The notes under the pieces: model-generated
The model's input: the letters and a program-made list of their open reading frames with translations, nothing else
Databases searched by the model: none
What the model was told of the DNA's origin: nothing
Program-made: the position numbers and the translations under genes
Shown: in pieces, positions 1,555 through 30,713 of the stretch
Position numbering within the stretch: position 1 is the first letter of the stretch
How the letters are laid out: each line of letters begins with the position of its first letter
IMG/VR virus record: IMGVR_UViG_3300037808_001421
Span: 1,483-65,482 of that record
Source: a virus
Lineage: Duplodnaviria; Caudoviricetes
Length of the DNA stretch: 64,000 nt
Direction: 5' to 3' (one strand)

Positions 1555-1707
1555 TTAGTGGGACTCGAACTGCAACTTCGCGATCAACTGTTCCCGAGAC
1601 AGGTCATGGTACCCAACACCTGCGGCATCGGCCAGCGCTTGCAGCTGGTCATCGTCCATGAGCTCGAGTTCGTCGGCGCCGCAAACCAGGTCCGGGCCCC
1701 AGATTAC
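1555..1707 (-). CDS. 50-codon -1 frame extension of 1704-2735, Rho-N/HeH-like helical domain
   Basis: Open -1 frame right after G GGA AAG: VIWGPDLVCGADELELMDDDQLQALADAAGVGYHDLSREQLIAKLQFESH. Confidence 0.55.
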   Translation of the reverse strand, partial: VIWGPDLVCGADELELMDDDQLQALADAAGVGYHDLSREQLIAKLQFESH

Positions 1708-2735
1708 TTTCCCTCGTCGTCACCATCTGCGTTGATGTAGTCCAGGATGTTCAGACCCTGCACGACGAGAGCTTCGCGGTCGTACTCGGTCTTGCCGTCT
1801 TCGTCCTCTTCCTCGGTGTCCGTGGTCTTGTTGATGAAGATGTCGTGCAGCAGCGTGACTGCCGTGACGGTCGTCTCCCTGTTCTCCGCAACCGCGGCCT
1901 TCAGGTCCTTGTTCTCCTTGCGGATGGCCTTCAGGTCCTTGATCACAGGCGCGAGCGCCCCTTCGACCGCGGCGGCCACGATGGCCTCGAGATCGACATG
2001 CCCTTGCCCATTGCTGGACTCAGGTTCGGGCTCGCTGGTCTTTGCCTTGGCGGGGGTACGTTTGGTACCCACGGATGGCTTGCCGACCTTGCCCGGTTTC
2101 GCGCCCGCCTTGCCAGGTGCCTTGGATGTTTTGCCGCCTTTGTTGATTGTAAGTTTTCCCACTGGTTTCGTTTCCTCTTTTGGTGCCCGTTTCGCAGGCA
2201 GTATCAGGTCTAGTTTGCGTTCCCGCCGGAGGATTTCACGCACACACTGGTTCGTCGACCAGAATATGACAGTGTCCACCGGAAGCTCGAACAGCCCCTC
2301 AGGATCGCATAAGTACTTCCGTAGAACGAGGGCTCGACGGGGCAATCGCTCACCACCGTCTTCGTCATCAGGCTCTTCCCAGCGGAGTTGGTACTCCCTC
2401 TGGTCTGCCGTCATCCCCTCGGTAATCATGCCGTGGAAGTCGGGTATCTCGACGTCCATCAGGTCCATGTCTTCATCCTTTCCTTTGAATCGATGCGCAA
2501 GCGCAATAGCTCGGATTACGCCCTGGCCGCAGGTCTCGTAGGCCCTGGCTCTTGAGAGCAGGTCTCGATGGGCAAGCTGTACGTAGTCTTCGCATTCGCG
2601 TGTTGTCGTAGCCGTGATCAGTTTGTCTGCATGGAATGTGCTGCCATCGACCACGTGAGCACAGCCGGTGAGCATTGCGCAGGTCTCACAGATGCGTTCG
2701 CTCAAAGCATCTGGTCCTTGTTGCGTGAGTAGCAA
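1704..2735 (-). CDS. Hypothetical protein, 343 aa (Cys-rich N-terminus, Lys/Pro linker, coiled coil, acidic end)
   Basis: ORF track; composition. Confidence 0.75.
   Translation of the reverse strand: MLLTQQGPDALSERICETCAMLTGCAHVVDGSTFHADKLITATTTRECEDYVQLAHRDLLSRARAYETCGQGVIRAIALAHRFKGKDEDMDLMDVEIPDFHGMITEGMTADQREYQLRWEEPDDEDGGERLPRRALVLRKYLCDPEGLFELPVDTVIFWSTNQCVREILRRERKLDLILPAKRAPKEETKPVGKLTINKGGKTSKAPGKAGAKPGKVGKPSVGTKRTPAKAKTSEPEPESSNGQGHVDLEAIVAAAVEGALAPVIKDLKAIRKENKDLKAAVAENRETTVTAVTLLHDIFINKTTDTEEEDEDGKTEYDREALVVQGLNILDYINADGDDEGK
1707..1713 (-). other. Putative -1 ribosomal frameshift slippery heptamer G GGA AAG
   Basis: In-frame X XXY YYZ heptamer directly before the TAA stop; same heptamer as lambda G-T. 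Confidence 0.6.
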
Positions 2736-3025
2736 AGCGCCGCTTGAACATCAGGGCAGCCTGGGCAGTTGGGGCAGCAATCTTTGGGTGCTTGCACCTG
2801 CAAACTCTTCCAGTATCTGCGAAGCCACTTCGATTGTTTGAGCTTGATGAGCTCCAGCGGGCTATGGACGCTTACTCCGCTAAGCGTCTGCAGTGCCTCG
2901 ATGAGTACTTCCCGGCTAATGGCCGCGGTGACTCCAGGCATCTCGAGCCGTTGCGCAATCGTCAACAGCTCAGTGTGGTTCATGAGCTCCCACTTGAGGC
3001 GGAAGCTCGGGTCGAACTTAGCCAC
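2702..3025 (-). CDS. Hypothetical protein with Rho-N-like helix pair and C-terminal Cys cluster
   Basis: ELMNHTELLTIAQRLEMPGVTAAISREVLIEAL; CCPNCPGCP; AAGGAG RBS. Confidence 0.65.
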   Translation of the reverse strand: MAKFDPSFRLKWELMNHTELLTIAQRLEMPGVTAAISREVLIEALQTLSGVSVHSPLELIKLKQSKWLRRYWKSLQVQAPKDCCPNCPGCPDVQAALCYSRNKDQML

Positions 3026-3494
3026 CTAAAAACTCCTTCGGGTCCAGTACGTACACCCTGACGGCTACAGACGCCACCTTGCCCAGCACCTTTCTCGCGA
3101 CGTTCTCAAATATCTGCGAGTCATTTGGAATGCCTAAGGCTGTAGTGAGCGCATCCTGTAGGAACTTGATTCTGTTATCCACATCAATGGTCTTGTACCG
3201 CCACTTCGACCCTGGTTTATTCAGGATGTTCGGGAAGCACAACGTGAGTTCCAGCCCGTAGATAACCTCGGGGCTGACAGGAAACTTGCTCGCACCGACG
3301 ATGTCCTGCGAGACGACGCGCTTCACGTGCTCCCTGTACTCAACCCCGGTCTTCTTCAAGAAGACGCGCTTACCTCGTTTGCCATACAGGTCATTGACGC
3401 TGGGCGGAAGCTCGAAGGTGTAGTTAACTTGGGAGCTTGATGCCTTTTCGCTTGGCTTTGGAGGGGACTTTGGTTTTCTTCGCAGGTTTAGCAC
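3018..3494 (-). CDS. rusA: RusA-like Holliday junction resolvase
   Basis: PPSVNDLY, DVDNRIKFLQDAL, NDSQI motifs. Confidence 0.85.
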   Translation of the reverse strand: MLNLRRKPKSPPKPSEKASSSQVNYTFELPPSVNDLYGKRGKRVFLKKTGVEYREHVKRVVSQDIVGASKFPVSPEVIYGLELTLCFPNILNKPGSKWRYKTIDVDNRIKFLQDALTTALGIPNDSQIFENVARKVLGKVASVAVRVYVLDPKEFLGG

Positions 3495-4158: not shown

Positions 4159-4942
4159 GCTTACTCCTTTGCCCCTGTGGGCAGCCGTGTTGGTACTGGC
4201 ACTGCTTGCAGTGCCAGCCGGGGGTAGCTACGGGTCGCTTCTTCTTTTCCGCAGCTTGTAGCACTGGTAGGATGGTCTTGTTCTGAAGGCTATCCCAAAT
4301 CTTCTGGTCGAACTCGACGACGTGCTCTTTGAGCTCGCTGGTGTTCTTACAGAAATACAGGATCAACCCAAAGGGTGAATCGTCCGTTGCCATGTAGCAG
4401 GTGAGCTGTCGGATGTTGTCGGGGAAGGGCTTGTTCTGAATCTTCTCCCAGCCGAAGCTGCCACCCTCCTTGATGCTTTTGATCTCCATGGTGAAGCGCA
4501 CTCGAGGGAAATCGAAGGCACCGTCCGCATGGCTTGAAATCTCAAGCTCACCGTTCTTGAGAGACTTCTCCGCCTCAAATTGTACGTCGTACATCGCCTC
4601 GAAGTGACCCTGCAACATGCCATGCATGGCGGTTCCGATGTCCCAGATGAGTATCGTCCGTCCATCGAAGTCTCGGTCAGGCTCAACCTCGCCAGTTAGC
4701 TCGAAGTACACCTTCAGTAAGCAGACGGTAGGCTTGGCAATCGTCGACGGGTGGATGCTTCCTTCTCGACTGGCGCCGTTGTACCCGACCTGGAACTGGA
4801 TGGTCACCTGCTCTCCTTTGGGAGAGTTCAACCATTGAAGGTAGTCGTAGAGGTCGTCTAGGACCGTGACCTGTTTCTTAGCCTCCTTTATCTCGGAGGG
4901 GCTGGCGTGCTGTAAATCGTAGATGGTACGAATCTCACCCAT
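4109..4942 (-). CDS. Cas4-like PD-(D/E)XK exonuclease
   Basis: IHPSTI..C, GTAMH, HADG, EIKS, QLTCY, C-terminal CKQCQYQHGC; start refined to ATG 4942. Confidence 0.85.
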   Translation of the reverse strand: MGEIRTIYDLQHASPSEIKEAKKQVTVLDDLYDYLQWLNSPKGEQVTIQFQVGYNGASREGSIHPSTIAKPTVCLLKVYFELTGEVEPDRDFDGRTILIWDIGTAMHGMLQGHFEAMYDVQFEAEKSLKNGELEISSHADGAFDFPRVRFTMEIKSIKEGGSFGWEKIQNKPFPDNIRQLTCYMATDDSPFGLILYFCKNTSELKEHVVEFDQKIWDSLQNKTILPVLQAAEKKKRPVATPGWHCKQCQYQHGCPQGQRSKHDQPSRFAKRIRQLRR

Positions 4943-5414
4943 TGAACAACGCCTCGAAGTGCCGGGAGTCCAGGACGACGAACCTCTTGTGCGGGAACAC
5001 ACCCTGGAACTCTACTTCCATGAAGGGAATCTCAGGGCCCTTCGCTTCGGATTCTATCTTCATCAACTCGTCCAGCTTGAGCTTGTACTCCTTGCTGCGC
5101 GTGAACTTGCACTCACCGCGGCGGTCTCCTTCTTTGTGTAGGTCACCTTTGGCGCGGGACTTGTTGCCTGAGCCAGGTTGTGTCCGCATGCCGTAGCGAG
5201 ATGCAGCCTTGCGCTCTTGCTCTTGGCTACGGCGCTGGTTGTCATTCTTCTTACGTAGCTTAGGTCTCTTGGGCTTCACAGCAGTGAATAGCTCACCGCA
5301 GTTTGGGCAAGTAACGACGTTGCTCTTACGTGCGAATAGCGCGTCCTGGTTGACGGTGATTGTCTTCGAGCAATCGGGACAATCCATCTCGAACGTGTTG
5401 TCAGACCCGCTCAC
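4935..5414 (-). CDS. Zn-ribbon fused to Hjc-like PD-(D/E)XK resolvase
   Basis: CPDC...CPNC, then QERKAA, PGSGN, KGD, ECK. Confidence 0.7.
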   Translation of the reverse strand: MSGSDNTFEMDCPDCSKTITVNQDALFARKSNVVTCPNCGELFTAVKPKRPKLRKKNDNQRRSQEQERKAASRYGMRTQPGSGNKSRAKGDLHKEGDRRGECKFTRSKEYKLKLDELMKIESEAKGPEIPFMEVEFQGVFPHKRFVVLDSRHFEALFNG

Positions 5415-24521: not shown

Positions 24522-27500
24522 ATGACAGAGTTCAATCCTCAAAAAGAGTTCGACAACCTCAAGAGCTCGCTCACCGACACCATCAAGGATTACTTTCCCC
24601 TCGAGGGCGCCCGCCGCACACTGCGCGCAAAGCGTGTCTGGGTCGATGATAACAAGGACATCGACGACGTCACTGAGCAGAAGGCCGCGAAGATAAAGGG
24701 TCGTAGCTGGACGGTGCCTCTCAAAGCAGAGGTAGAGCTCGTAGACAACAAGACAGGCAAGGTCGTAGACAACAAGACGGTCTCCCTCGCTCAGCTGCCC
24801 AAGATCACCCGAAGGTACGGGTACATCGTCAAAGGCAACGAGTGGTCCCCCATCAACCAGTTTCGGCTGAAGTCAGGTGTCTACACTCGAGAGAAAGACA
24901 ACGGCGAGCTCGAGTCGCAATGGAACCTGGCCAAGGGCTATGGGTTCAAGATGCAGTTCGATCCGGACCCTAAGTCTCGGAAGATGAACATCACCCACGG
25001 GACGACGAACACGCCTCTGTACCCGGTGCTCAAAGCCATTGGTGTGGACGACGACGCCATTGAGAAGGCGTGGGGCAAAGAGCTCCTTACCGCCAACAAG
25101 AAGTACGAGGGCAGCCCCAGGCAGATGCGTCAGCTGTTCAAGACTCTGACGGGCAATGCCCCTCCTGAGAAGATGGAGGAAGTCACTGCCGGCATCCGTG
25201 AAGCCTTCGGCAAGACCGAGTTGCGTCCGGATTCTACCAAGCTGACGCTGGGCAAAGGGTTCGATACAGTCAACGGCTCCGCGCTGCTGACGGGTAGTAG
25301 GAAGATCCTCGACATCTCCAAGGGGAAGGCAGATCCTGATGACCGTGACAGCCTGCAGTTCAAGGACCTGTTCGGAGTGGAAGACTTGCTCACCGAGCGC
25401 ATAGGTAAGGACCGTCGCTTCAAGATTCTCAATCGCATGAAGAAGAAGGTTGATAGCGTGAAGAAGGTTCACGACGTCATCTCTCCCGACACATTCGGCA
25501 AGCACGTCACGTCCTTCTTCACGAGCTCGACGCTCGCTGACATGCCGAAGCAGCAGAACCCTGTCAGCTTCCTCGGTGAAGCTCGCAAGACCACCATTGG
25601 TGGGCAACACGGGCTGGAGAGCTCGAGGGCTATCTCGCTCGAGGCCCAGTCCATCAACGCTAGCCATGTTGGGTTCTTAGACCCAGTCAAGACTCCTGAG
25701 AATGACCGCATCGGTACAGTGCTGCAGATGTCCGCGGCGTCAACCAAGAAGGGGAAGACTATTCGTACGCGCGCCTTCAACATGAAGACGGGCAAGCTCG
25801 AGTACATCGAGCCGCACACGGCATTGAAGTCGCGGCTAGCTTTTCCTGACCAGTACACCTGGAAGAACGGAAAGCCCACAGCCATACATGACCGCGTGAA
25901 GATCACGGATGACGAGGGTGAGATCCGTAGCAGTGCCCCTAAGGACGTAGACTACGTTCTTCGTTCGACCAAGGGCCTCTTCGACCTGTCCACGAACATG
26001 ATCCCTTTCCTGTCGTCAGACCAGGGCAACCGTACGATGGTCGCCGCGCGTCAGCTCGAGCAGGCTGTTTCCCTGAAGCACCGCGAGCGCCCGCTGGTAC
26101 AGACCAAGTCAGAGGGGTCAACGACTTTCGAAGCCGTGATGGGGAAGCTCAACTCTCACGTTGCTCCCGTGGGTGGGAAAGTCACGAAGGTCACGAAGGA
26201 CAACATCATCATCAAGGACGCCAGTGGCAAGTCTAAGAAGGTTCCGATCTACAACGACTTCCCTCTGAACGACAACCACACCTTCATGACTGCCACTCCT
26301 GTCGTGAAGGTCGGTGACACTGTCGAGAAGGGCAAGCTGCTCGCGGATACCAACTACACCAAAGGTGGAGACCTGGCGCTAGGCACCAATCTCAACGTGG
26401 CGTACACGCCCTTCAAAGGATACAACTTTGAGGACGGTATCGTCATCTCAGAGAACGCGTCTAAGAAGCTGACCTCTGAGCACATGCACCGTGAAGGCAT
26501 CAAGAAAGAGCGGGGCACAGTTCTCAGTAAGAAGAGGTTCCTGGCTGAGACTGCGGGCCGGGTTACTAAAGAGCAGGCGGCGAAGCTCGATGATGAAGGT
26601 GTCGTCAGAGAGGGTACTCGACTCGTTCACGGCGACATCATGATAGGTGCGCTGAAGGAAGAGGCTGCCAGCCGGGAGAGGCAGGCGCTCGCGCAGTTCT
26701 CAAAGGGTAAGATCAAGCCCGTCGTTGCGCGGCCCCGCACCTGGGACAAGGAGTACGAAGGCACTGTCTCCCAGGTTGTCAGGCACGGTAAGGACACTAC
26801 GATCTACGTGAAGACTGAGACCCCCGCGGGCATTGGTGACAAGATCGTCGGCAGGCACGGCAACAAAGGCATCATCTCTATGGTCCTGCCTGACCACGAG
26901 ATGCCCCACACCAAAGACGGTGAGTCGATGGACGTACTGCTGAATCAGTCAGGCGTTCCGACCCGCATCAACTTGGGGCAGGCTCTCGAGACCGCGGCAA
27001 GTAAGATTGCCAAGAAGACAGGCAAGACTTACGTCGTCAACAACTTCGACCCCAAGAACCCCGACTACACAAGGGGGATGCTCAAGGAGCTCAAGGATCA
27101 CGGCCTATCCGACCAGGAGGAGTTGATCGATCCCCAAACTCGTAAGAGCTACGGCTCTGTTCTCGCCGGCAAGCAGTACATCATGAAGCTCGAGCACCAG
27201 GCCGAGAAGAAGATGAAGAACAGGTTCCGCGGACCGTACAGCGTGAACCGCTCACCCAAGGGTGGTGGTGACTCCGGCGGGCAGCAGATGGACATGTTCG
27301 GGCTGACGGCCCTGCTGGCGCACGGTGCCAAGGAGAATATCAGGGAGTCTCAGACCTCGCGTTCGGACATGAACGATGACTTCTGGATGTCCATCCAGGC
27401 GGGCGACCCGATCCCTGCTCCCAAGATTCCGTTCGCGTACAAGAAGTTCGAGGGCCTGCTACGCGCCGCCGGCGTCGACGTTGAGAAGAACGGTAACGAG

Positions 27501-30500
27501 CTTCAGCTTGCCCCCTTGACCGACTCTCAGGTCTTGAAGATGAGCAATGGTGAACTCAAGCGACCCGAGCGTAGGCTCGAGGGCAACGCCAAGCCCGCCG
27601 AGGGTGGCTTGTTCGACCCGGAGGTGACAGGTACTCGCTGGCCGAATGGTGAGATGGGCGACAAGTGGAGCCACATCAAGCTGGCGAAGCGTGTACCCAA
27701 CCCCGTCTTTGAGCAGCCAGTAAGAACACTGCTGGGCATGACGGGCAAGCAGTTCAACAGCGTCATGGCGGGTACAACCGCGCACGAAGGTGGTACTGGA
27801 CCTGACGCTATCGTGGCGTCACTCAACAAGATCAACACCAAGAAAGAGCTCGACCGTCTTCAGACTTCGGCCAAGGCTCTGCGTGGCGCCAAGCTGGACA
27901 CCGCGAACAAGAAGATTCGACTGCTGCGTGCGTTGAACGAAAAGAAGTTGAACCCCAAGGCCGCATACACGCTGGGGAACGTTCCCGTGCTGCCCCCGAC
28001 GATGCGACCCATCTCTCTGCTGGACAGTGGGGACTTGAATGAAGACGACACAACAGGGCTGTACGCCAACGTTGGGCAGGTCAACTACCAGCTGAAGAAC
28101 CTGGACCCGCGGCAGCCCATAGAGGACAAGCACGAGCTCCACTCTTCGCTCTACGATGGTGTGAAGGCTCTGATGATGACGGGCATGTCGCAGCATGGTC
28201 GGCACCGCAGCGGCATCATCGATACGATTTCAGGTGCTCAGAAGGGCAGCCCCAAGCACGGTTACTTCCAGAAGAAGATCATGGGCCGGCGCCAAGACCT
28301 GTCGTCCCGTGGTGTCATCATCCCGGAACCGAGTCTGAGCCTTGACGAGGTTGGGCTGCCTGCGAAGGCGGCTCGAGAAATCTTCAAGCCTTTCGTCGTA
28401 CGTCGCCTCGTCCACCAAGGTACGCCTTACTTGCGCGCGCAAGAGGCCGTTCGAGAGAACAAGCCTGAGGCGGAGAAGGCTCTCGAACTCGAGATGAACG
28501 AGCGCCCAGTACTCCTCAAGAGAGACCCCGTCCTGCACAAGTACGGTGTTCAGGCGTTCCGAGCTCGGAAGGTGAAGGGTCGAGCGATCAAGATCCACCC
28601 GCTGGTGACCGCAGGCTACAACGCAGACTTCGATGGCGATACGATGAGTGCGTTCGTGCCCATCTCTCAAAAGGCTGTTCGTGAAGCCAAGAGGATGATG
28701 CCCTCCAAGAACTTGTTCAGCCCGTCTGATGGCGGCATCACGAATGTCCCGACGCAGGAAGCGGTCCTCGGTCTGCATCACCTAACCAAGAAGGGTAAGA
28801 GGACAACGCGCAGGTTCAAGACTCCTGCGGAAGCAGCATCAGCAGCGTCGAGGGGTGAAATCGGAGTCACGGATGTGGTGACTGTCGACAACACTAAAGC
28901 GCTGACTATGCCTATGGTGAAGACAGCCGCGGCCAAGGGCGGAACGAGGACTACGGTAGGCCGTCTGATGGTTCAAGCAGCTCTGCCCAAGAGCGCACGG
29001 AGCGACGCCTTTCTGACCAGGGACGACGCTACACTGAACAAGAGGAAGGTCAAGGAGCTGCTCACCCGCGTGGCTGACAGTGACCCAGACAGCTTCGCCA
29101 AATCTGCAGATAAGCTGAAGGACCTAGGTAACTACCAATCGACAGGTACATCCTTTGGTCTGAAGGACCTGGTGTCAGATAACGTTCCTCGAGACAAGAT
29201 TCTCAACAGCATCAAGCCTGCGGAAAAGAGGATCCTCGACAACAAGAAGCTGACCAAGAAGCAGCGGGATGAACAACTGGTGTCTCTGTACCAAGGTGCA
29301 GACAAGGAGATTCAGAAGGTCACTCGAGCTCGCGCTGAGAAGAGTGACAACCGCATGTACGACCTGGTTCGTTCGGGTGCTCGAGGTAACTGGAACCAGT
29401 ATCGCCAGATGACAGTGGCACCGATGCTGGCAGTGGACTCTCGAAGCAAGGTCATCCCCACGTTGATCCCCAAGGCATATTCAGAGGGTCTTGACGTCGG
29501 CTCGTACTGGGCCGCTATGCACGGCGCGCGCATGGGTACGATCAGCCGGGTGCTCGGAACAGCACTGCCGGGCAAAGAGGCCAAGGCCATCACGCAGTCG
29601 ACCATCAACCAGGTGATTACCTCGGAAGATTGCGGAACAACACGCGGCCTGCGTATGGGTACCAAGGACGGAAACGTCGTGGACCGTGTTCTCGTGGCAC
29701 CCGTGACCTTGGGCAGCCGCGGAGGTAAAGAGAAAGGTTCGATCGCAGCAGGTACGATCGTCACCCCCGATGTCGTGGATCGCTTGCGCAACAACAAGGT
29801 CAAAGAGGTGTCTGTACGCACGCCGTACAAGTGCGAGGCAGGCCACGGCATGTGCAGCAAGTGCTTCGGTTTGAACGAGCGCGGTGATTTCCACGAGAAG
29901 GGCGTGAACGTAGGTGTGCTCGCCGCTCAAGCTATCGGTGAGCCTCTTGCCCAGATGTCGATGAACGCTTTCCATGAAGGTGGTGTCGCCGGCGCCAAGG
30001 GCTCGAGCGCTGTGAACAGGTTCAAGCGGATGGAGAACCTGACGCACTTCCCCAAGAAGCTGGCAGGCTCCGCGACTCTTGCGCTCGCCGGTGGCAAGGT
30101 CACTAAACTCGTCAAGGACCAGGCTACGGGTGGTCACCGTGTCAGTGTCGGTGACCAGGAGCATTACCTCCCTCCACGTAGCGCGGTGCGAGTGAAGAAG
30201 GGCCAGACCATCAAGAAGGGTGACGCCCTGACCATGGGCCCAAAGAACCCTCACGAGATGCTGCCGCTCACGGGCCTCGAGTCTGTGCAGAGGTACCTCA
30301 CGGAGGAGCTCTCGGACGCGTACGACAACCGTGAAGGCATCCACCGGAGGAACACCGAAGTCTTCGTCCGGTCGCTAACGAACTTGGGCAGGGTCAAGGA
30401 CCCAGGGCACCGAGACGACCTGCTTCACGGGGATCCGGTGCCCATCTCAGAGATTCGTGCATTCAACCGCGGCCTCGGGTCAGGCAAGAAGCCTGTGCAG

Positions 30501-30713
30501 GTGGAGCCTTACTTGCGCGGCACCAACTTGCTGCCCAAAGAGATGCAGACGGACTGGATGGCCCGTATGCAGCACTCCGGGTTGAAAGATACGATCCTCA
30601 CCGGCGCTGCCCGTGGCTGGAAGTCGAACCTTCATGGTACACATCCTGTACCGGGCATGGCGTACGGCAAGGAGTTTGGCAAGGGCACCGACGACGAGCC
30701 CTGGTCCTACTGA
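24522..30713 (+). CDS. rpoBC: Single-polypeptide fused beta + beta-prime DNA-directed RNA polymerase
   Basis: Beta: GYNFEDGIVIS, GDKIVGRHGNKG, SGVPTRINLGQ, YIMKLEH; beta-prime: PVLPPTMRP, LLKRDPVLH, YNADFDGD, SGARG, AAQAIGEPLAQMSMNAFH. Confidence 0.95.
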   Translation: MTEFNPQKEFDNLKSSLTDTIKDYFPLEGARRTLRAKRVWVDDNKDIDDVTEQKAAKIKGRSWTVPLKAEVELVDNKTGKVVDNKTVSLAQLPKITRRYGYIVKGNEWSPINQFRLKSGVYTREKDNGELESQWNLAKGYGFKMQFDPDPKSRKMNITHGTTNTPLYPVLKAIGVDDDAIEKAWGKELLTANKKYEGSPRQMRQLFKTLTGNAPPEKMEEVTAGIREAFGKTELRPDSTKLTLGKGFDTVNGSALLTGSRKILDISKGKADPDDRDSLQFKDLFGVEDLLTERIGKDRRFKILNRMKKKVDSVKKVHDVISPDTFGKHVTSFFTSSTLADMPKQQNPVSFLGEARKTTIGGQHGLESSRAISLEAQSINASHVGFLDPVKTPENDRIGTVLQMSAASTKKGKTIRTRAFNMKTGKLEYIEPHTALKSRLAFPDQYTWKNGKPTAIHDRVKITDDEGEIRSSAPKDVDYVLRSTKGLFDLSTNMIPFLSSDQGNRTMVAARQLEQAVSLKHRERPLVQTKSEGSTTFEAVMGKLNSHVAPVGGKVTKVTKDNIIIKDASGKSKKVPIYNDFPLNDNHTFMTATPVVKVGDTVEKGKLLADTNYTKGGDLALGTNLNVAYTPFKGYNFEDGIVISENASKKLTSEHMHREGIKKERGTVLSKKRFLAETAGRVTKEQAAKLDDEGVVREGTRLVHGDIMIGALKEEAASRERQALAQFSKGKIKPVVARPRTWDKEYEGTVSQVVRHGKDTTIYVKTETPAGIGDKIVGRHGNKGIISMVLPDHEMPHTKDGESMDVLLNQSGVPTRINLGQALETAASKIAKKTGKTYVVNNFDPKNPDYTRGMLKELKDHGLSDQEELIDPQTRKSYGSVLAGKQYIMKLEHQAEKKMKNRFRGPYSVNRSPKGGGDSGGQQMDMFGLTALLAHGAKENIRESQTSRSDMNDDFWMSIQAGDPIPAPKIPFAYKKFEGLLRAAGVDVEKNGNELQLAPLTDSQVLKMSNGELKRPERRLEGNAKPAEGGLFDPEVTGTRWPNGEMGDKWSHIKLAKRVPNPVFEQPVRTLLGMTGKQFNSVMAGTTAHEGGTGPDAIVASLNKINTKKELDRLQTSAKALRGAKLDTANKKIRLLRALNEKKLNPKAAYTLGNVPVLPPTMRPISLLDSGDLNEDDTTGLYANVGQVNYQLKNLDPRQPIEDKHELHSSLYDGVKALMMTGMSQHGRHRSGIIDTISGAQKGSPKHGYFQKKIMGRRQDLSSRGVIIPEPSLSLDEVGLPAKAAREIFKPFVVRRLVHQGTPYLRAQEAVRENKPEAEKALELEMNERPVLLKRDPVLHKYGVQAFRARKVKGRAIKIHPLVTAGYNADFDGDTMSAFVPISQKAVREAKRMMPSKNLFSPSDGGITNVPTQEAVLGLHHLTKKGKRTTRRFKTPAEAASAASRGEIGVTDVVTVDNTKALTMPMVKTAAAKGGTRTTVGRLMVQAALPKSARSDAFLTRDDATLNKRKVKELLTRVADSDPDSFAKSADKLKDLGNYQSTGTSFGLKDLVSDNVPRDKILNSIKPAEKRILDNKKLTKKQRDEQLVSLYQGADKEIQKVTRARAEKSDNRMYDLVRSGARGNWNQYRQMTVAPMLAVDSRSKVIPTLIPKAYSEGLDVGSYWAAMHGARMGTISRVLGTALPGKEAKAITQSTINQVITSEDCGTTRGLRMGTKDGNVVDRVLVAPVTLGSRGGKEKGSIAAGTIVTPDVVDRLRNNKVKEVSVRTPYKCEAGHGMCSKCFGLNERGDFHEKGVNVGVLAAQAIGEPLAQMSMNAFHEGGVAGAKGSSAVNRFKRMENLTHFPKKLAGSATLALAGGKVTKLVKDQATGGHRVSVGDQEHYLPPRSAVRVKKGQTIKKGDALTMGPKNPHEMLPLTGLESVQRYLTEELSDAYDNREGIHRRNTEVFVRSLTNLGRVKDPGHRDDLLHGDPVPISEIRAFNRGLGSGKKPVQVEPYLRGTNLLPKEMQTDWMARMQHSGLKDTILTGAARGWKSNLHGTHPVPGMAYGKEFGKGTDDEPWSY

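Follow-up and report, generated by a model that had tools for sequence, protein, structure and literature searches.

In the lambda gpG/gpGT tail assembly chaperone the slippery heptamer is G GGA AAG, and the G-GT frameshift at this site is not known to need a downstream structure. The identical heptamer stands at the end of the gene considered here, an open reading frame (ORF) at 1704–2735 on the minus strand (product P0001) of a 64,000-nucleotide (nt) stretch of virus DNA (Duplodnaviria; Caudoviricetes), positions 1,483 to 65,482 of IMG/VR record IMGVR_UViG_3300037808_001421; this stretch, to which the coordinates refer, is called the window and represents most of the 65.5-kb virus record. 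An initial annotation, made from the letters of the window, had proposed a −1 frameshift that appends a Rho-N/HeH-like tail (HeH, helix-extended-helix) and gives two isoforms. Comparison with related loci supported the proposal (domain in the −1 frame at all 11 distinct loci; in frame in none of 99 homologues; extension devoid of a start codon in two loci), and a programmed −1 ribosomal frameshift at the last two codons, yielding a short and a HeH-tailed isoform, is considered quite probable from the sequences compared. Recoding of this kind, a −1 frameshift adding a C-terminal extension, is known. Passages of PMC5009743 describe G_GGA_AAG, the lambda g-t site, as highly prone to shifting in E. 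coli; sections of PMC10885494 list backward slip motifs such as 'five' for annotated phage frameshifts.

The two systems that share the heptamer differ in other respects: the window gene is no tail chaperone and lies in a replication/recombination module, its shift would fall at the very last two codons, and the added part comprises 50 residues of linker and predicted HeH domain, not a T-like domain. Recoding in a replication gene is represented by E. coli dnaX, where it sets the ratio of two isoforms, tau and gamma, that differ at the C-terminus; there the shifted product is the shorter one, and the shift depends on A AAA AAG together with an upstream Shine–Dalgarno (SD) sequence and a downstream hairpin. 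The shift in the window would, in contrast, extend the protein, and it shows no stimulators; homology between the two is absent. A −1 shift near the gene end that places a short C-terminal extension on part of the molecules is likewise described, in portions of PMC5009743 and PMC10885494, for gene 10A/10B of T7/T3 and the major head protein of Lactobacillus phage A2; these are capsid proteins, and the extension is immunoglobulin-like in T3 and A2, whereas the window gene is non-structural by context and its extension is of predicted HeH type. In Listeria phages PSA, A118 and A500 (passages of PMC5009743), a single P-site tRNA slips on the Pro codon beside the stop in CCC_UGA and a C-terminal extension results; the site resembles those relatives of the window gene that end in C CCC TAG or C CCT NNN stop, but the Listeria shifts are +1 and concern structural genes, while −1 is required in the window family. 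No paper on this family or on a HeH-adding frameshift was found in the literature search, the scope of which excluded the supplementary tables of frameshift surveys, where the family may be listed.

Gene end and −1 extension

The 3′ end of the gene reads GAC GAG GGA AAG TAA. The features of this region were as follows:

1704–2735, minus: 0-frame ORF, phage protein P0001; 343 codons counted from the first TTG
1707–1713, minus: slippery heptamer G GGA AAG in X XXY YYZ phase, made up of the two last 0-frame sense codons and the preceding G
1704–1706, minus: 0-frame stop TAA, adjoining the heptamer
1720–1722, minus: TGA of the −1 frame, three codons 5′ of the heptamer, closing that frame
1558–1707, minus: −1 extension of 50 codons, VIWGPD...LIAKLQFESH, with TAA stop at 1555–1557
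1657–1659, minus: ATG, sole conventional start (ATG/GTG/TTG) before the HeH motif; candidate start of a 34-amino-acid (34-aa) peptide
1564–1677, minus: predicted HeH domain and short preceding helix (AlphaFold2, AF2, model)
about 1520–1552, minus: GC-rich hairpin, terminator-like operon end, directly after the −1 stop; −32.4 kcal/mol, followed by only three T

The ORF end, the in-phase heptamer, the −1 TGA, the 50-codon −1 opening and the hairpin that follows it had all been pointed out in the initial annotation and were confirmed from the sequence. Any shift is confined by the TGA at 1720–1722 to the last five 0-frame codons, the overlap of the 0 and −1 frames (bounded by this TGA and the 0-frame TAA) being five codons long; the −1 frame after the slip begins GTA ATC TGG. 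Guanine-plus-cytosine (GC) content of the extension at codon positions 1/2/3 was 0.74/0.32/0.76, a coding pattern present in the −1 frame only; the neighbouring genes gave 0.53–0.64/0.37–0.50/0.63–0.81. The 64 coding-like ORFs of at least 80 aa within the window served as control set; ORF 1704–2735 was the only one to carry an in-phase XXXYYYZ heptamer within its last six codons. A −1 frame open for at least 45 codons past the stop was found in 28 of the 64, mostly because the next gene occupies that frame, and is therefore unremarkable alone. The hairpin at about 1520–1552 was not listed by a simple terminator scan of the window, owing to its only three T. Contigs of four seawater metagenome runs, three of them possibly the source of the window DNA and one from another sample, were identical across the shift site, with no inserted or deleted letters; no RNA run was listed among those containing the stretch.

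The AF2 model of the 49-aa extension (mean predicted local distance difference test score 78.8) contains helices at residues 10–15, 18–28 and 37–47. Its top match in VIA-align was the N-terminus of Rho (1a62_A, residues 1–43; Z 6.6; root-mean-square deviation, rmsd, 1.1 over 42 residues), followed by YqbF, the C-terminus of T4 EndoVII, the LEM domain of emerin and the SAP domains of Hcc-1, Ku70, FAN1 and PIAS1; the Z values are modest for a domain this small. Foldseek with the extension gave nothing at E ≤ 0.001, though Rho, LEM and SAP chains stood in its list; Pfam Rho_N (PF07498) did not match the window's extension and matched two of nine extensions (best E 0.0064), below the family thresholds; an extension profile run against PDB sequences reached Rho 7oqh at E 0.22, a weak hit. 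Two helices joined by an extended loop are present in the model, which points to a HeH fold of the Rho_N/SAP/LEM kind, and the resemblance to Rho-N/HeH motifs that the initial annotation had seen is borne out by the predicted fold, best matched by the Rho N-terminus and then by SAP/LEM.

Conservation of the two frames and probable turnover of the putative shift site

An exhaustive phmmer search with P0001 gave 100 matches including the query itself, 71 of them at E ≤ 1e-10; the family comprises about 100 clusters at 50% identity. A word-based protein search with P0001 returned the window's own protein alone, and no relatives were found in GenBank phages, in IMG/VR (queries P0001, P0005 and alignment A10) or in GTDB genomes. 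The proteins of the nearest relatives end in Gly-Asn, as seen at the protein level only. Four scans of viral and metagenome contigs gave 21 loci; four in which the gene runs off the end (L006, L014, L015, L016) and six duplicates (L009, L010, L017, L019, L020, L021) were left out, and L013, with its extension lost at the contig end, was counted for the gene end and not for the extension. Ten distinct usable loci (L002, L003, L004, L005, L007, L008, L011, L012, L018, L022) together with the window make up the 11 distinct loci, and these with L013 the 12 gene ends; the proteins of the relatives are about 25–32% identical to that of the window.

The HeH motif L..LA[DSE]..G[VI]G..L...L...L is encoded in the −1 frame, which is open from the overlap onwards, in 11/11 distinct loci; past the 0-frame stop this frame stays open for 49–61 codons in all of them, and the +1 frame closes within 8–33 codons in the loci printed. 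The linker between stop and motif varies in length from locus to locus; the frame is constant. Among 99 homologous cluster representatives no in-frame HeH was detected with the HeH profile (best E 0.12). The HeH part is under purifying selection (ratio of nonsynonymous to synonymous substitution rates, dN/dS, 0.1–0.18 in four pairs), and a linker motif, PP.FE[IL]T, located directly after the shift site, is common to L005, L011 and L012. A strong hairpin stands just past the −1 stop, and not past the 0-frame stop, in 8/10 loci; it is followed by a T-run in seven loci (7 of the 9 others examined), the hairpin of the window having TTT only.

A search for longer proteins carrying the HeH motif gave a single match, P0104, which consists of an aminotransferase fragment plus the motif on an 858-nt ENA contig; it was considered as a natural in-frame fusion and rejected as probably a chimeric assembly.

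Conservation of the heptamer and of the −1 ORF had been named in the initial annotation as the check on its reading, a lack of such conservation counting against it. The −1 ORF was kept throughout; the heptamer was not, and other slip-prone in-phase runs occupy its place in the relatives:

L002, L004, L005, L007, L013, L018, L022: gene end G GGG GAA or G GGG GAG, zero or one codon, stop
L011, L012: gene end C CCT NNN stop
L008: gene end C CCC TAG
L003: gene end A AAA CAG TAG

The last three codons contained an in-phase X_XX run at 12/12 gene ends vs 8/64 control ORFs (13.5% expected). All seven Gly-Glu gene ends read G GGG GAR, despite a GGG share of 22% among the Gly codons and a G share of 33% among the third positions of these genes, which points to selection acting on the nucleotides themselves. 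Of the 99 homologues, 62 have G[ENK] among their last four residues, vs 8–11% in upstream control windows. The gene ends read as those of a slip site that has turned over while the two-frame arrangement stayed. Tandem slippage would operate in the window; in the relatives a single P-site tRNA would probably slip close to the stop.

In L005 (3345–3410), L011 (3570–3635) and L012 (1418–1482) the codons for FE[IL]T and SLE[RQ]L (TTCGAG..., CTCGAG) can pair to a long stem that begins a few bases past the stop (fold z −3.0 for L012); with three sequences only, this stem is indistinguishable from protein conservation.

Proposed mechanism and alternative explanations

Most ribosomes would terminate at the TAA at 1704–1706 and release the short protein, predicted to start with an N-terminal domain that contains Cys, followed by a disordered stretch rich in lysine, a long helix and an acidic tail. 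On G GGA AAG some ribosomes would move back by one base, tRNA-Gly re-pairing from GGA to GGG and tRNA-Lys from AAG to AAA, and would then add 50 residues, i.e., a linker of about 16 residues and the HeH domain. The outcome would be a fixed ratio of untethered to HeH-bearing isoforms, the HeH domain probably anchoring a minority of subunits to nucleic acid or to a partner. The occurrence and efficiency of the slip, its tandem mechanism, the oligomerisation, the DNA binding and the biological role are what we infer from the arrangement described.

Several observations weigh against a programmed frameshift. The heptamer G GGA AAG is absent from the relatives, the window alone having it among the 12 gene ends; the G GGG GAR, C CCY and A AAA runs of the relatives are not classical tandem-slip heptamers and are presumed to be shift-prone from their sequence. 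No downstream stimulatory RNA structure beyond that of shuffled sequences was found in the window (z −0.22 and +0.56); hairpins 6–8 nt 3′ of the shift site occur only in some relatives (L004, L018, L013, L012), and the sequences are too few for a covariation analysis of conserved stimulatory RNA. The linker is weakly constrained (dN/dS 0.34–0.9 on 16–24 codons). The DNA-level comparison spans 12 of roughly 100 lineages, and the loci are linked by descent, the counts given above not being independent trials. Finally, a start codon precedes the HeH domain (or, in L012, coincides with its first residue) in the window and in 8/10 other loci, and in several small-ORF calls the first conserved Leu is preceded by M at a distance of one or two residues, so that some members of the family may initiate the HeH separately.

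The last of these observations belongs to the alternative that survives best, although it is improbable: a separate small gene giving a free 34-aa HeH peptide from ATG 1659, by weak direct initiation or by re-initiation after termination 45 nt upstream, with the heptamer incidental. The ATG is indeed present, the small ORF beginning there was called by a gene caller (P0115), and such small ORFs were called in 19 clusters, that of the window included; L004 has GGAG 9 nt upstream of its candidate start, and M is found just before the first HeH helix in several members. On the other hand, the extensions of L005 and L011 are free of ATG, GTG and TTG throughout, and the only such codon of L012 is a TTG that falls within the domain; the candidate starts lie at non-homologous positions, and an SD-like 4-mer (GGAG/GAGG/AGGA/GGGG) was found 4–10 nt upstream for two of the 12 starts considered, which precede the motif or, in L012, coincide with its first residue, and not for that of the window. 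The next genes beyond the terminators carry clear GGAG-type sites. The initial annotation had seen no obvious ribosome-binding site for the extension. Moreover, a free gene need not keep the −1 frame, open from the overlap, across variable linkers in 11/11 loci, and the slip-prone runs at 12/12 gene ends would be left unexplained.

Transcriptional slippage, with RNA polymerase adding or dropping a base in the G/A runs, or ribosome hopping, would lead to the same long protein and is regarded as very unlikely. The products are indistinguishable by sequence and the runs are homopolymeric, but these runs are just 3–5 bases long (GGG AAA, GGGGG, CCC, AAAA), RNA polymerase slippage generally needs longer ones, and no indel variants were seen in the DNA contigs. 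That a single 393-codon gene, the frames of which would be joined by one extra base in the AAA run, was split by an indel from sequencing or assembly or by a recent inactivating mutation is hardly credible and already contradicted by the two-frame layout in 11/11 distinct loci from different samples, by the lack of an in-frame version in 99 homologues and by the identity of the contigs of four runs across the site.

Protein body, genomic setting and significance

The start of the gene is likely the TTG at 2705, which overlaps the TGA of the upstream gene (as TTGA) and gives 333 aa, as in call P0004. The gene call of the protein collection starts at ATG 2675 (323 aa) and is probably too short, because the nearly invariant Cys16 and Cys19 (family alignment A1) lie upstream of this ATG. 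The predicted structure of P0001 shows a confident N-terminal domain (about residues 10–185), a lysine-rich disordered stretch (188–244) and a long helix (249–304); the 'coiled-coil' of the initial annotation corresponds to this predicted helix, the only element on which the term rests. Neither Pfam nor PHROG gave a family match, tail chaperones included, for P0001 or 47 homologues. For the protein body, Foldseek found no match at E ≤ 0.001 in PDB or BFVD, VIA-align gave a best Z of 5.3, chiefly on the long helix and with no convincing known fold, and an ESM Atlas search no usable match.

Residues 105–178 of P0001 (window about 2202–2423, minus strand) show weak structural matches to the small helical-domain types matched by the extension (Rho N-terminus: Z 5.2, rmsd 1.7 over 48 residues; T4 EndoVII C-terminus: Z 5.1). 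These are hints, from the model, of an internal HeH-like unit; hhalign of P0001 against the HeH profile was not significant (E 0.15).

ORF 1704–2735 is the last gene of a leftward replication/recombination block with the order helicase, DnaB, primase, family-A DNA polymerase, RecA/UvsX-like protein, resolvase, Cas4-like exonuclease, 244-aa protein, RusA, 107-aa protein, ORF 1704–2735. Its placement by the initial annotation, as a non-tail gene at the end of the replication operon, agrees with these neighbours (RusA, Cas4-like exonuclease, RecA/UvsX, polymerase, primase and DnaB); neither gene homology to tail chaperones nor a position between tail tube and tape-measure genes was found. The gene directly before it is the following:

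2702–3025, minus: upstream partner gene, 107 aa, with Cys-rich C-terminus

This gene was directly upstream in 9/9 related loci tested (blastp), and RusA, the 244-aa gene and the exonuclease were further upstream in the relatives where the locus extends that far, the gene order being common. The 107-aa protein had no Pfam or PHROG family match; its N-terminus is HeH-like by eye, and hhalign against the extension profile was not significant (E 0.16). Two different genes of Holliday-junction resolvase type are found in the module, RusA (3018–3494, minus strand) and phrog_2002 (4935–5414, minus strand), both together with the Cas4-like exonuclease and the RecA/UvsX-like protein. The nearest DNA polymerases of GenBank (cultured) phages are at most 34% identical to that of the window. 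Several PHROGs that carry the annotation RNA polymerase beta subunit, and also two large families of unknown function, are matched (E down to 1e-122) by a single 2063-aa ORF at 24522–30713 (plus strand), possibly a phage RNA polymerase of multisubunit type in fused form.

Returning to the programmed −1 frameshift, we favour, with a confidence only a little above even, a wider reading taken as a whole: that this is an obligatorily recoded family in an uncultured marine phage clade, in which HeH is reached only by the −1 shift and never by fusion, the site has been repeatedly replaced, and selection acts for a fixed, sub-stoichiometric tethered share, the arrangement being a gpG/GT- or dnaX-like ratio device in phage DNA metabolism. 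Conserved programmed frameshifts of phages are known mainly from tail chaperones and from some capsid and tail proteins; a deeply conserved case in a replication/recombination module would, if true, widen the range in which annotators and recoding researchers should look. It would also correct the annotation of the family, which at present consists of a truncated protein and, in some records, an orphan ORF of 34–75 aa, and would provide, for single-tRNA slippage beside stop codons, a natural series of different shift sites that serve the same purpose. The long isoform, if the reading is true, should indicate what this abundant protein of unknown function is tethered to.

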